Of a stretch of 49,747 nt of DNA, positions 8,316 to 46,251 are shown piece by piece. The notes under the pieces were generated by a model. It had not been told where the DNA came from. It ran no database searches and worked only from the letters and a program-made list of their open reading frames with translations. Source of the DNA: Betaproteobacteria bacterium. Lineage in GTDB: Bacteria; Pseudomonadota; Gammaproteobacteria; Burkholderiales; Burkholderiaceae_C. Location of the stretch: contig JANMYG010000098.1 in the NCBI GenBank assembly GCA_031381865.1, positions 1-49,747 on the forward strand, written 5' to 3'. A program made the translations under genes and the position numbers. Each line of letters opens with the position of its first letter. The stretch's first letter is position 1.

Positions 8316-9518
8316 CTACGAGCCAGGGGCCGAGGCCGAGGCAGTCCGGCCCTGCGCCAGCAGCAGCGCTGCGCCGACGGTGGCGGAAACCAGGGACGCC
8401 GCGAGCACCCCCATCTTTACTTGCACCATGTAGCTCGGGTCCGCCTCTTCGAACGCCAGCGAGCCGATGAACAGGCTCATCGTGAACCCCACGCCACACA
8501 GCACACAGACGCCGAAGAACTGGACCCAGGTTGCGAGCGCCGGCAACTGCGCAGGTCCAAAGCGGATCAGCACCCACGATGCGCCGAAAACCCCGACCGC
8601 CTTGCCCAGCACGAGCCCGGCAACAATGCCCAGCGGCACAGTTTGCGCAAATACTTCCGGGCCCACACCACCCAAAGCGACGCCGGCATTCGCGAACGCG
8701 AACATCGGCAACACGAGAAAGGCGACCCACGGCTGCACGCTGTGTTCTGCCCGCGCCAGCGGCGATCCACCCTTGCCATCGGAGATCGGGATCGCCAGCG
8801 CCGTCACCACACCCGCCAGCGTGGCATGCACGCCTGACTTCAGCACGCACACCCAGACCAGCAGGCCCACCACAACGAACGGTCCAACGGCCTTGAGCCC
8901 GATCCGGTTGAGCACCACCAGCAGGAAACCCCCGGCGCAGGCGGCCATGAGCATCCCGAAAGACAGGTCGGTGGTATAGAAGATGGCGATCACGATGATC
9001 GCCCCGAGGTCATCGATGATGGCCACAGCCGTCAGGAAGACCTTGAGCGAGGCCGGCACGCTGGGGCCGAGCAGGATCAGAATGCCCAGGGCAAACGCAA
9101 TGTCGGTTGCCATGGGTATGCCCCAGCCGCGCAATGCGATGGCGTCGCCCCAATTGATTGCGGCATAGATCAGCGCCGGCACCACCATGCCGCCGAGCGC
9201 GGCACCGGCGGGAAGCAGCATCTGCGCCGGCTTCGCAAGATCGCCCTGGAGCAGTTCACGCTTGATTTCAAGGCCGACAAGAAAGAAGAACACCGCCATC
9301 CACAGGTCGTTGATCCATACCAGCAGTGGCTTGGCAAGCACCAGCCAGTCGGTGCCCACGCGCAATTCGATCGGGATCTGCAGGAAGCGGTGGTAAGCGC
9401 CCTGCCATGGCGAGTTGCTGATGGCCAGCGCGGCCAGTGCCGCCGCCGCCAATAAAACGCCGCCCAGGGACTGCGAGCCGATGAACTGGTTGACGGTCCG
9501 AACGATGGGTTTGAACAT
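8316..9518 (-). CDS. nhaA: Na+/H+ antiporter NhaA
   Basis: WINDLWMAVFFFLVGLEIKRE, GWGIPMATDIAFALG, AIIDDLGAI (catalytic DD), KSGVHATLAGV, GVGFTMSLFI; start at ATG 9518. Confidence 0.95.
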   Translation of the reverse strand: MFKPIVRTVNQFIGSQSLGGVLLAAAALAALAISNSPWQGAYHRFLQIPIELRVGTDWLVLAKPLLVWINDLWMAVFFFLVGLEIKRELLQGDLAKPAQMLLPAGAALGGMVVPALIYAAINWGDAIALRGWGIPMATDIAFALGILILLGPSVPASLKVFLTAVAIIDDLGAIIVIAIFYTTDLSFGMLMAACAGGFLLVVLNRIGLKAVGPFVVVGLLVWVCVLKSGVHATLAGVVTALAIPISDGKGGSPLARAEHSVQPWVAFLVLPMFAFANAGVALGGVGPEVFAQTVPLGIVAGLVLGKAVGVFGASWVLIRFGPAQLPALATWVQFFGVCVLCGVGFTMSLFIGSLAFEEADPSYMVQVKMGVLAASLVSATVGAALLLAQGRTASASAPGS

Positions 9519-9760
9519 GGAAAGCGCCGCGCCCGGGTCAGGTCGCTGCAATTGGGGTTGCCAAGTAGTATCCCAGCGATTTCTGGAAACCACGACCAAC
9601 CGGCACCGGTAGGTAGCAATGGCGTAGACGGGCCCATGCGCGCCGGTGCGCAGTGGAACAACTTCCGCCATACCGGTTCAATAGTCGCAATTGCCATCGG
9701 CGCCGCCGCTTCCCGATGCCATGACACGGCACCGCCCTGGGCGAGCCCGTCAGCACGCCA

Positions 9761-19318: not shown

Positions 19319-19543
19319 GGGGACACTCCAAGAAAAAAGGAGAACGCGGCGTCAATCCGGTCGCGAGAGCGGCCATTGTGCGCCCAACGCCATCGGCCTG
19401 AAACCGATGCCAAGGCTACCGCGTTCGAAGCTGTGCACTATAACTCCGCCGCCACGGTCGTTCATTAGGGAGTAACCCTTCTCGGGCGAGGTCGACGCGC
19501 GTGGCATGCGCCAGGCCTGCGTGTGGCTGCCTGTGGCTGCCTG

Positions 19544-19873
19544 TCACCGCGGCAGGCCGGTACTGGCACGCAATTGCGCAAGCAACTGCTCACAGCGCGC
19601 AAACGCATCGAATACCTCATGGGCGCCTTGCAACAACACCAGCGCCGCATCGGTGGGCACCAGGCGCTTGCCGCGCAGTTCGAACAGGCGAACACCCAAC
19701 GCCTCACTGAGTTTGCGCAAATGGCCTGACAAGGTTGGCTGCGCCATGCAAAGCGACTCGGCGGCGCGCCTGGCACTGCCGATGCGAACCACGGCCTCGA
19801 AGGCGGCGAGTTGGGGCAACGTGCCGTGGCGCAGGTAACGCCGCGAGACCCCGGGAGTAAGCAGAGTAGCCAT
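19544..19873 (-). CDS. Short LysR-type regulator (winged HTH + linker helix only, 109 aa)
   Basis: QLAAFEAVVRIGSARRAAESLCMAQPTLSGHLRKLSEALGVRLFE is a LysR HTH_1 pattern; GAGGA RBS before ATG 19873; only about 225 nt separate its stop from oppA, too little for an effector domain. Confidence 0.85.
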   Translation of the reverse strand: MATLLTPGVSRRYLRHGTLPQLAAFEAVVRIGSARRAAESLCMAQPTLSGHLRKLSEALGVRLFELRGKRLVPTDAALVLLQGAHEVFDAFARCEQLLAQLRASTGLPR

Positions 19874-19900
19874 TGCCATTCCTCGTGTGAACCGGGAAAG

Positions 19901-20015
19901 GCAAAGGTCTCGTCCATGCCGCAAGGGCAACCCGGGCGCCGGGGCCTTTCAGCCCGTATTGACGACGACCCGGCACACCTGGCGCGCGCCAGGTGCGGGA
20001 CTACTCCCGCTTTGC
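19901..20015 (-). ncRNA. yybP-ykoY manganese riboswitch
   Basis: Minus strand reads GCAAAG-CGGGAGTAGTCC-[P2 CACCTGGCGCGCGCCAGGTG]-[P3 CCGGGTCGTC-GTCAATAC-GGGCTGAAAGGCCC-CGGCGCCCGG]-[P4 TGCC..GGCA]-TGGACGAGAC-CTTTGC: four-way junction with the GGGAGUAG, GUCAAUAC and CGAGACC hallmarks. Confidence 0.88.
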
Positions 20016-20119
20016 GTTTACGCACGGCATCCACCACCGTCGCGCGGTATTTTTATAACATGGTCGGCGGCTTCGGCGAAAGCTTCCCAAGGCAATGCCC
20101 ACAATTGGCATGGGGAGTT

Positions 20120-20153
20120 GATCGCGATGCGCGATCGATCGTGAATCGCGAAG
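20120..20153. promoter_or_regulatory. Candidate tandem LysR-type operator (T-N11-A dyads) upstream of terC-usp
   Basis: Perfect dyad GATCGCG-ATG-CGCGATC (20120-20136) followed directly by the imperfect copy GATCGTG-AAT-CGCGAAG (20137-20153). Confidence 0.4.
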
Positions 20154-20216
20154 CTTCCACCGCGCGAATCTGCTGAAAATCAAAACACGAGCTTGTCACG
20201 CATCAGCACATTACCG

Positions 20217-21503
20217 ATGGACCCTGGCCAATTCCTGTCTGCCCTGCTGGCGATCATCGTGATCGACCTGGTACTGGCTGGCGACAACGCCATCGTCATC
20301 GCGCTGGCGGCACGCGCATTGCCGGCCCACCTGCGAAAGCGCGCGATCATCTGGGGGGCCGTGGGCGCCATCGGCGTCCGCAGTCTGATGACCGTGGTGG
20401 TGGTGTGGCTGCTCAAGATTCCGGGCCTGCTGGTCGCCGGCGGCTCGATGCTGCTCTGGATTGCCTATGGCCTGCTCCGACCCGACGAAGGCAATGGCGA
20501 AAGCCATGGGCCTGCGGCCAGCACGTTCTGGGGTGCGATGCGCACCATCGTGGTCGCCGACGCCGTCATGGGGCTCGACAACGTGCTGGCGGTCGCCGGT
20601 GCCGCCCACGGCAGTTATTTGCTGGTCGTGACCGGCCTGGTCATCAGCGTGCCCGTCGTCGTATGGGGCAGCGCATTGGTGCTCAAGGTGGTGGACCGCT
20701 ACCCTGGCGTCGCCTATCTGGGCGCGGCGGTACTGGTGTGGACCGCAGTCAAGATGGTCACCGGCGAACCCCTGCTCAAGCCCTGGTTCGATGCCTCGCC
20801 ATTGCGCCCAGCTGTGGTCTACCTGCTGATTCCTCTGGTACTCTGGACGGGATTCCTGCGCAACCACCGCCAGCTCGAGTCACGCATCCACGCACGCGTG
20901 GCTGAGTTCGCAAAGCATCGCCCGTCAGGCGAAAGTTCGGCGCCCGCTGCCGTACCCCTGCGCACCCGGTTCAACCAATCCGAAGGAGATCGAAGCATGC
21001 TGAAAGTCCTTGTTCCCATCGACGGCTCGGCCAACGCCCTGGGTGCTGTCAGCCATGCCATCACCGAATACCGGCGACACCACGAGCTCGAGCTGCATTT
21101 GCTCAACGTGCAGCCGTATTTGTCCCGGTACATCGGGCGTTTTGTGCGCCGCCAGGACCGTGAATCCTGGCATGGCGAGCAGGCGCGCGCCGCGCTGGCC
21201 GGTGCGCGCGCGTTGTTGGTCCAGGCCGGCGTGCCGCACGAGGCGCACTGGGTCGTGGGCGACCGCGGCAAAGAGATATGCAGCGCGGCCGAGCGGTTGG
21301 GTGCCCACCATATCGTCTTGGGCACCGCACGCAAAAACTCCCTGACCCGCATGCTCGAAGCTTCGGTCACCAATCGGGTGCTTGAATCCACGCCGGTGCC
21401 AGTCGAAATCGTGGCCGGCAACGCGGTATCAAAATGGGAGCAATGGGGCCTGCCCGCCGGGGCTCTGGGCCTCGGCGGACTGCTGCTGCTGGCGCTGGAT
21501 TGA
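20217..21503 (+). CDS. TerC/YjbE-family membrane protein fused to a universal stress protein domain with a C-terminal hydrophobic tail
   Basis: DLVLAGDNAIVIALAAR and ADAVMGLDNVLAVAGAA TerC motifs; from 20997 MLKVLVPIDGS...HIVLGTARKN...SVTNRVLESTPVPVEIV USP fold. Confidence 0.88.
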   Translation: MDPGQFLSALLAIIVIDLVLAGDNAIVIALAARALPAHLRKRAIIWGAVGAIGVRSLMTVVVVWLLKIPGLLVAGGSMLLWIAYGLLRPDEGNGESHGPAASTFWGAMRTIVVADAVMGLDNVLAVAGAAHGSYLLVVTGLVISVPVVVWGSALVLKVVDRYPGVAYLGAAVLVWTAVKMVTGEPLLKPWFDASPLRPAVVYLLIPLVLWTGFLRNHRQLESRIHARVAEFAKHRPSGESSAPAAVPLRTRFNQSEGDRSMLKVLVPIDGSANALGAVSHAITEYRRHHELELHLLNVQPYLSRYIGRFVRRQDRESWHGEQARAALAGARALLVQAGVPHEAHWVVGDRGKEICSAAERLGAHHIVLGTARKNSLTRMLEASVTNRVLESTPVPVEIVAGNAVSKWEQWGLPAGALGLGGLLLLALD

Positions 21504-21513
21504 GACCAGGGTT

Positions 21514-21590
21514 TGGCCTGCCCGACAGGGATCGAACCTGTGACAACCAGCTTAGAAGGCTGGTGCTCTATCCAACTGAGCTACGGGCAG
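21514..21590 (-). tRNA. tRNA-Arg (anticodon TCT)
   Basis: CTGCCCGTAGCTCAGTTGGATAGAGCACCAGCCTTCTAAGCTGGTTGTCACAGGTTCGATCCCTGTCGGGCAGGCCA; cloverleaf, TTCGA T-loop, CCA end. Confidence 0.95.
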
Positions 21591-44817: not shown

Positions 44818-46251
44818 ATGCAACTCAACTACATCGCCAACGCATCACGCCCCTCGTCCAGCGGGCGCGTGATTCCTGTCATCGACCCCTCGCACGGGCA
44901 GCCGTTCGACGAAATTCAACGCAGCAATGCGGCCGACATCGACACGGCAGTCGGCGCGGCGCGCCAATGCATGGATGCGGTCTGGGGAAAATTCAGCGCG
45001 ACCGAACGCGGTCGCCTGTTGATGCGGTTGTCACAAAAGGTGACTGAACATGCCGAGGAACTGGCGCAGATCGAGATGCGCGATTGCGGCAAACCAGCCA
45101 AACAGGCCCGCGCCGACGCCGCGGCACTGGCGCGTTATTTCGAGTTTTATGCCGGCAGCTGCGACAAGCTGCATGGCGAGACCATCCCGTACCAGGACGG
45201 CTACAGTGTTTTCACCTGGCGCGAACCGCATGGTGTGACCGGGCACATCATTCCGTGGAACTACCCGATGCAGATCTTCGGGCGCAGCGTGGGCGGCGCG
45301 TTGGCCGGTGGCAACGTGTGTGTCGTCAAGCCGGCCGAGGACGCCTGCCTGTCGCTCCTTCGGGTGGCGCAACTGGCGGCGGAGGCCGGTTTCCCCGCCG
45401 GTGCGATCAACATCGTGACCGGCTACGGACACGAGGTCGGCGACGCGCTGGCGCGCCATGCCGGCATCGACCACATCAGCTTCACCGGCAGCCCCAAGGT
45501 CGGCACCCTGATACAGCAGGTAGCGGCCGAGCGCCACTGCCCGGTGACGCTCGAACTTGGCGGCAAGAGTCCGCAAATCGTGTTCGCCGATGCCGACCTG
45601 GACGCGGTCATACCGGCAGTCATCAACGCCATCGTGCAAAACGCCGGCCAGACCTGCTCGGCCGGTTCGCGGCTGCTGGTGGACCAGGCGATTTACGAGC
45701 CGTTGTTGCAGCGCCTGGGCGCCGCGTTCACCCAGCTGCGTGTCGGCCCGGCGGCGATGGACCTCGACCTGGGCCCGCTGATCCGGCAGAGCCAGCAGCA
45801 ACGCGTGTGGGATTTCCTGAGTGATGCGCAGGTCGCCGGCATTCCCATGGTGGCTCAGGGGCAGATCGTCGACGATGCACCGGACAGCGGCTTCTATCAG
45901 GCGCCGACCCTGCTGCGCGACGTGCCCGTCATGCACCGGTTGGCGCAGGAAGAGGTGTTCGGCCCGGTGCTGGCGGCGATGGCCTTTGTCGATGAGGACC
46001 ATGCGGTCGAACTGGCCAACGCCACGCAGTTCGGACTGGTCGCGGGCGTCTGGACACGCGACGGCGCGCGCCAGTTCCGGATGGCCAAACGCGTGCGCAG
46101 CGGCCAGGTGTTCATCAACAACTACGGCGCCGGTGGTGGCGTCGAGTTGCCATTCGGCGGCGTCAAGTCGTCTGGCCACGGACGAGAAAAGGGCTTCGAA
46201 GCCCTGTACGGTTTCACGACGCTCAAGACCGTCGCCATTCGACACGGGTAG
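44818..46251 (+). CDS. Aldehyde dehydrogenase family protein
   Basis: IIPWNYP, FTGS, LELGGKSP, GQTCSAG (catalytic Cys), EEVFGP, PFGGVKSSG. Confidence 0.93.
   Translation: MQLNYIANASRPSSSGRVIPVIDPSHGQPFDEIQRSNAADIDTAVGAARQCMDAVWGKFSATERGRLLMRLSQKVTEHAEELAQIEMRDCGKPAKQARADAAALARYFEFYAGSCDKLHGETIPYQDGYSVFTWREPHGVTGHIIPWNYPMQIFGRSVGGALAGGNVCVVKPAEDACLSLLRVAQLAAEAGFPAGAINIVTGYGHEVGDALARHAGIDHISFTGSPKVGTLIQQVAAERHCPVTLELGGKSPQIVFADADLDAVIPAVINAIVQNAGQTCSAGSRLLVDQAIYEPLLQRLGAAFTQLRVGPAAMDLDLGPLIRQSQQQRVWDFLSDAQVAGIPMVAQGQIVDDAPDSGFYQAPTLLRDVPVMHRLAQEEVFGPVLAAMAFVDEDHAVELANATQFGLVAGVWTRDGARQFRMAKRVRSGQVFINNYGAGGGVELPFGGVKSSGHGREKGFEALYGFTTLKTVAIRHG

Follow-up and report, generated by a model that had tools for sequence, protein, structure and literature searches.

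The locus studied here raises the question of what a Mn2+-type riboswitch may govern when the gene behind it encodes a LysR protein reduced to its DNA-binding head, and when a TerC gene lies divergently on the other side. It is located in a 49,747-nucleotide stretch, referred to below as the window, of a 5.6 Mb genome that is 90% complete and whose relatives belong to the Burkholderiales, e.g. Ideonella and Caldimonas. An earlier note on this DNA had placed the aptamer, the short LysR gene (hereafter mini-LysR) and the TerC gene at coordinates that proved correct (Table 1). The answer that we consider probable is that Mn2+ switches on the translation of a ligand-free dimer, which in turn activates the divergent terC-usp gene.

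Table 1. Features of the mini-LysR/terC-usp module (window coordinates)
Feature	Position	Strand	Remarks
Mini-LysR coding sequence, 109 aa	19544..19873	(-)	Winged HTH and linker helix; effector domain absent
Expression platform	19873..19904	(-)	UUGCCUUUCC (19904-19895) can pair with GGAAUGGCAA (19882-19873)
yybP-ykoY (Mn2+-type) aptamer	19899..20016	(-)	Four-way junction; L3 = UCAAUAC
Predicted extended -10 (TG-T-TATAAA) of the riboswitch-lysR transcript	20052..20060	(-)	From the sequence; start probably near 20045
Distal T-N11-A operator box ATCGCGATGCGCGAT	20121..20135		Predicted, 20.1 bits
Proximal T-N11-A box ATCGTGAATCGCGAA	20138..20152		Predicted, 21.5 bits; 17 bp from distal box
Predicted weak -10 (GAAAAT) of terC-usp	20175..20180	(+)	22 nt past proximal box; without -35 consensus
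TerC (YjbE subfamily)-USP fusion, 428 aa	20217..21503	(+)	PF03741 and PF00582; putative target
tRNA-Arg(UCU)	21517..21590	(-)	3' end borders the module

The relatives of the module were collected with the short protein as the starting point. Of 582 candidates of 61-195 aa, 508 matched at an E-value of 1e-15; many of these were on short contigs, and the counts given below therefore rely on loci, from which duplicates and 12 rows had been removed (L067, ten riboswitch-less CbbR-like loci and one unpublished genome). In L067 both lysR and terC carry frameshifts, which are probably assembly errors. Classification was possible for 236 of 239 loci and yielded 159 short, 8 intermediate and 69 full-length forms, shares that do not represent population frequencies because short proteins served as the seeds of the searches and some of the short frames were picked by hand. 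A weak search for longer close relatives gave 9 matches among 4112 candidates, one of them with PF03466, and the full-length relatives were found later, via genomes. Among the genes with enough upstream DNA, the L1 motif of the riboswitch was present in 145/149 short and 62/67 full-length cases, and a divergent terC gene was found in 115/126 and 45/66 loci, respectively. The short form and its riboswitch, whose conservation the earlier note had proposed to check, are thus both maintained, and with 159 distinct short homologues the window copy is not the lone truncation of a LysR of about 300 aa that the same note had contemplated. Four short homologues (L287, L293, L295 and L300) have neither riboswitch nor terC; they adjoin a gene that appears Nudix-like from its translation and have a TGTACAATTG motif in common upstream. 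In the genus, 4 of 36 genomes carry the mini-LysR gene.

The riboswitch points away from the TerC-USP gene, as had been described. The TerC part resembles the YjbE proteins of TIGR03717 (R_switched_YjbE; 219 bits, cut-off 134.8) and is unlike them in being fused to a USP domain and in that the riboswitch would reach it only through the regulator. From its family its substrate is assumed to be Mn. Across the subfamily of loci the partners are TerC proteins and P-type ATPases, the usual yybP targets, with three of the ATPase partners confirmed by Pfam. Searches against plasmids returned three records for the TerC part and no match for the aptamer leader. Inside the gene (20983-21000) there is a strong SD-like sequence, GAAGGAGA, followed by an ATG that is in frame and opens the USP domain; homologues repeat the G-D-x-x-M, and in L136 USP stands alone. 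USP may also be made as a separate protein. The module is flanked on one side by a conserved promoter-like stub that lies behind oppA (19439-19478) and on the other by the tRNA-Arg gene, whose 3' end is at 21517. This site is empty in the genome G034 (locus L324), and the genome G007 has other genes past the stub, suggesting an insertion hot spot.

The region between the two divergent genes contains candidate binding sites for the regulator. A palindrome, ATCGCGA-W-TCGCGAT, was found in 90 of 92 intergenic regions as compared with a mean of 2.6 in shuffles, with an operator matrix that had been trained on the regions it scores and a motif that had been seeded; on the same terms, 99% of 173 predicted sites conform to T-N11-A. 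The boxes are usually paired at a distance of 17 bp (72/83 intervals). Nineteen sites of the genome reach 17 bits or more and the only paired one is at terC, i.e. a search for a wider regulon revealed no second paired site in the genome. The divergent target imagined in the earlier note has thereby acquired a putative LysR-type operator in the form of paired predicted boxes, whereas its suggestion that nhaA is controlled as well found no backing, the best upstream score there being 6 bits. The NhaA-type antiporter gene (8316-9671, minus strand) lies 10 kb off and has no operator upstream. Unpaired strong operator-like sites occur in the source genome (G000) at C250:9386, C400:382, C587:10306 and C661:746, and in the window at 45070, inside a predicted coding region.

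In 69 of 72 loci the proximal box is followed, after 21-22 nt, by a hexamer of the form nAnnnT (non-overlapping offsets, at most 10/72). Its first base is T in 1 of the 69, and at most two of six positions match a -35 element in 55 of them. In 14 of the 69 loci an ATG follows the -10 hexamer at a distance of 6-7 nt, which, if read as leaderless, fixes the terC start and puts the centre of the proximal box near -41/-42. This is an activator position, as in CRP class II, and the box would, as judged from the predicted elements, occupy it. LysR activation sites are likewise stated to lie over the -35 region in the accessible text of PMC11495319.

A predicted site that touches -35 could also serve repression, and the Mn2+-induced mini-LysR might repress terC-usp and/or its own gene, with a dimer that binds but cannot recruit polymerase. 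Apart from the contact of the proximal box with the -35 region, this would agree with the greater strength of the proximal sites in the short forms (median 15.6 versus 8.2 bits) and with the statement, in the part of PMC10550928 available, that TerC proteins can serve metalation besides export. Moreover, classical LysR activation employs a tetramer built via the effector domain (PMC11495319, accessible text), and the lack of this tetramer-building domain in mini-LysR counts, by analogy, against activation. Nevertheless, a terC promoter of such apparent weakness would hardly require a repressor, terC has an ON-type aptamer of its own in 22 of 116 loci, which implies that TerC is wanted at high Mn, and the distance between the box and the lysR -10 varies from 2 to 86 nt, unlike what would be expected of a conserved autorepression site. 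Taking these points together we regard repression as unlikely, and activation of terC-usp is the reading followed below.

By its sequence, the leader is a real yybP-ykoY aptamer for which Mn2+ binding is predicted. Read on the minus strand from 20015 to 19901, the extent that the earlier note had proposed, its sequence is GCAAAG-C-GGGAGUAG ... CGUCAAUAC ... GACGAGACC-UUUGC, and it has the four-way junction of P1-P4 and the loops L1 and L3, features listed for the class in the part of PMC12153347 available. The Rfam model RF00080 did not reach its gathering score of 45 bits in the window, where it matched a 31-nt piece only (14.6 bits, E 0.12), or in any of the 14 homologous loci scanned; one terC-side aptamer gave 32.5 bits. 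Since the same model missed E. coli alx and scored mntP at 41.6 bits, also below its cut-off, the gathering-score test is not discriminating and the miss in the window weighs little. Surveys relying on this copy of RF00080 would undercount the yybP-ykoY class.

A covariance model (R1) was derived from the leaders of 34 LysR genes; it gave 119 bits with the window, which is one of its training members. In E. coli it recovered alx (45.3 bits, E 2e-10) and mntP (35.9 bits, E 9e-8), the next match scoring 11.8, and it produced 94 matches across 91 further loci; the 7 CbbR-like loci included gave none. Confirmation by cmsearch, as suggested in the earlier note, thus failed with the Rfam model and was obtained with R1 through alx and mntP. 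The four-way-junction structure was drawn up manually on the basis of the 34-leader alignment and the window sequence, RNAalifold alone having missed P1.1. In this structure 88.5% of the cells are paired, and 27 of 37 pairs show changes on both sides; none of 500 shuffles was as high, and slid structures gave 31-50%. P1.1 is nearly invariant and contributes little to the covariation. A second aptamer was found neither before terC nor elsewhere in the 90% complete genome (150 of 7427 candidates scored). The GGGAGTAACC sequence at 19469 was considered as a second riboswitch and rejected, both R1 and Rfam being blank there and the same sequence occurring at empty or differently filled sites. The window also contains an ilvH RNA motif (RF02993, 29894-29961, minus strand, 79.5 bits).

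The pairing of the expression platform (Table 1) would hide the SD sequence GAGGA (19884-19880) and the A of the AUG, and part of one of its strands is also used by the 3' strand of P1.1. The latter overlaps UUGCC, which is able to pair with GGCAA immediately 5' of the AUG. This arrangement matches the P1.1 switch helix that the accessible text of PMC12153347 describes for translational ON members. In free folding P1.1 was absent from 36/36 leaders. When it was forced (35 leaders, L067 dropped), 31 of them showed a drop in the computed cost of opening the ribosome site that exceeded 1 kcal/mol, with a median of 4.7, and in the remaining four there was no effect or a reverse effect. For the window the computed cost changed from 14.4 to 8.5, a drop of 5.8 kcal/mol. 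The plain unpaired probability of the SD sequence was nearly flat in the window (0.37 without and 0.39 with P1.1) because a short SD hairpin persists. An element like the extended -10 of the riboswitch-lysR transcript was seen in 69 of 92 intergenic regions; a generic promoter scan found nothing, the lysR extended -10 included.

The relay could be real and its input something other than plain Mn2+, be it another cation, pH or a required partner protein. L3 varies across the homologues, and according to the parts of the papers available a pneumococcal yybP-ykoY member also answers Ca2+ (PMC11672702) and alx couples Mn to pH (PMC13594968); the window L3 differs by one base from that of alx, UCAUUAC (PMC13594968). 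On the other hand, the core L1/L3 bases are kept, U-C-A of L3 being invariant in 34/34 leaders, and so is the L3 adenosine: A57, likewise invariant in 34/34 and aligned to the alx L3, is probably equivalent to A37/A41, the Mn2+-binding L3 adenosine. The pH response has been described for the three-way fold of alx, whereas the window aptamer has P2. A different input is thus improbable, and we continue with Mn2+ as the signal.

The 109-aa open reading frame begins at the second ATG, 27 nt past the end of the aptamer. This start is favoured since the first ATG is replaced by ACG in many homologues. Pfam detected HTH_1 (PF00126) only, and the C-terminal effector-binding domain PF03466 was absent from the 109-aa protein; the description of the product as a LysR with the HTH and the linker helix only was therefore accurate, and from its sequence the protein is LysR-derived and not a canonical LTTR. 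With the CbbR model NF045990 it scored 41.8 bits against a cut-off of 450, a value that four full-length relatives (150-233 bits) did not attain either; among the models, CbbR or a neighbouring one fits the full-length relatives best, below the cut-off. The AlphaFold2 model (pLDDT 88) has a helix at residues 75-104 and its best fold match is CcmR (5y2v, rmsd 1.3); it also matches isolated BenM and CbnR heads, structures solved on DNA. A linker-helix dimer was predicted with a score of 0.78 (best control 0.01), which may reflect memory of solved LysR heads; 20 of 30 solved pairs attained the mark for this score, as did 1 of 23 single chains. The runs agreed in at least 84% of the contacts, with pLDDT of at least 83.

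An intact dimer surface, as predicted by the model, would also permit Mn-induced mini-LysR to pair with a full-length LysR, as a heterodimer or in the dominant-negative role put forward in the earlier note, and several genomes of another family do hold a short copy together with a full-length paralogue facing a P-type ATPase. In the window genome (90% complete), however, the closest full-length LysR has an identity of 42% over 84 aa, the next best in G012, a complete genome, is at 38%, and each of the 12 matching genomes of the family has one copy. Furthermore, the cognate operator is near-perfect and is kept beside the short gene. Heterodimers are possible in those genomes of the other family that hold both forms; as an explanation of the window locus they are very improbable, and a self-sufficient dimer is assumed in what follows. 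Full-length paralogues with the same riboswitch face a P-type ATPase gene in L184, L213, L224, L238, L240, L243, L281, L303 and others.

Selection on the short gene was estimated over 90 codons in 98 of 100 short genes. The median dN/dS was 0.26 (3427 of 4753 pairs in range, none above 1), identical to the value of 0.26 for TerC; with 46 disjoint pairs it was 0.19 (maximum 0.90). Between the window copy and its nearest relative there are 9 silent and 3 replacement changes. Judged from these sequence comparisons, purifying selection on mini-LysR is supported, which settles favourably another check that had been proposed. Of 138 short forms none is followed by similarity to the effector domain; of 69 full-length forms all are. 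Conservation among the short forms extends as far as the linker helix and no further, and the C-terminal tails are mutually unrelated. Although such tails, with lengths of 91-178 aa, and the recurrence of the truncation might be taken for the decay of a full-length LysR gene, the equality of dN/dS with TerC, the lack of effector remnants and the conservation of start, SD, riboswitch and operator largely refute a pseudogene.

In a tree rooted on CbbR-like proteins the riboswitch-bearing full-length forms are basal and the short forms nested (95 columns, with many open forks). Trees of the head plus TerC rejected the short forms as a single clade (AU p 0.00014; 33 versus 7 rows). A tree of 116 rows (quick LG+G4, assuming that lysR and terC travel together) contains 9 length changes, at least 6 of them forced by well-supported branches. 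Exact regain of the domain being unlikely, we read these changes as losses of the effector domain, at least six in number, with transfer as the alternative. Full-length CbbR/CcmR-like ancestors equipped with the riboswitch would, from the trees, have had two inputs. So the riboswitch appears to have come first, and the protein's own input to have become dispensable and to have been deleted later, repeatedly. The idea in the earlier note that sensing had moved from protein to RNA holds in that the protein input was later lost; it does not hold as a simple move, the riboswitch being present already in 62 of the 67 full-length relatives. In a LysR lineage of 215-226 aa (L191, L207, L216, L299 and L317-L319) one clean deletion has removed about 100 aa from the middle of the effector domain, a stretch that we take to be subdomain II and whose loss would take away the ligand cleft. 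The terC-side riboswitch is present in 8/67 of the short loci and in 14/42 of the full-length ones; a tie between truncation and loss of this element was considered and dropped (6 independent pairs, p 0.5).

The layout of the terC promoter was compared in the loci that passed a geometry filter (39/67 short, 16/40 full-length and 1/7 intermediate); the window copy failed the filter and was anchored separately, at 22 and 17. The distance from the box to the -10 is 21-22 in 36 of 39 short loci and 23-24 in 16 of 17 others, whereas the spacing of the boxes is 21-22 in 15 of 17 others and in only 12 of 39 short loci, contrasts that are not significant with 4 independent pairs. The shift would fit dimers freed from tetramer geometry. 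A spacing of 17 bp as exclusive to short forms was discarded, for it is also the best partner in 3 full-length loci and the 12 short loci just mentioned keep 21-22.

A broader reading, to which we give an even chance, is that these proteins form a natural family of effector-less LysR activators, in which the domain was deleted at least six times after the riboswitch had taken over the input and the promoter was rebuilt each time. It would account for the stronger proximal boxes, for their location 1-2 bp nearer to the -10, for the free box spacing of 17, 32 and 37-39 bp as opposed to 21-22 and for the halved domain in the 215-aa lineage, and it would leave the RNA as sole sensor and a 100-residue dimer as sole amplifier.

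For the window, the preferred sequence of events would be the following. Mn2+ would stabilise P1.1, as structure and family suggest, and thereby shorten the hairpin over the ribosome site. The protein would then dimerise through its linker helix, as predicted, with no ligand needed, so that activity would track abundance. Dimers would fill the two near-perfect T-N11-A boxes, and the proximal one, at about -41/-42, would recruit RNA polymerase to a promoter whose -10 is poor and which lacks a -35. TerC-USP, judging from its family, would export Mn or load it onto exported proteins.

Each part has its counterpart among known systems. With E. coli alx and mntP (RF00080) the locus shares the L1/L3 core, the four-way junction, the P1.1 helix overlapping the hairpin of the ribosome site and the link to TerC; it differs in that the aptamer, which is below the Rfam cut-off, heads a transcription factor and not a transporter, and in that terC has no aptamer. 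With the CbbR/CcmR(NdhR)/CmpR-like LysRs it shares the predicted fold, closest to that of CcmR, the divergent gene and the T-N11-A boxes, and it is set apart from them by the missing effector/tetramer domain, the 17 bp distance of the boxes and the riboswitch leader. For Klebsiella NAC, the first ~100 residues reportedly sufficed for activation in truncation work. NAC is also a precedent for a LysR protein that has no inducing ligand and whose activity follows its own concentration (PMC11495319, accessible text). NAC is full length and is set by transcription via a two-component system, whereas in mini-LysR the domain is deleted and the riboswitch likely sets translation.

The literature searched contained no yybP-ykoY riboswitch on a LysR gene and no natural head-only LysR family, although survey supplements may list such pairs; a LysR link is not mentioned in the portion of PMC11672702 available, nor LysR in the available main text of PMC3766115 or in that of the preprint 10.64898/2026.09.15.751765. 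The module is thus composed of known parts, is real and conserved, and its wiring is unreported in the literature searched. If the proposed mechanism is true, the largest metal-riboswitch class is not confined to transporter leaders and takes in a two-step RNA-to-regulator relay, of a type missed by Rfam-based surveys. The natural full-length, half-deleted and head-only LysRs, together with their own promoters, offer a direct test of the role of the effector domain and of the tetramer in activation, and a ligand-free activator of 109 aa with a 15-bp site and a Mn2+ input would, if the mechanism is true, constitute a compact sensor part.
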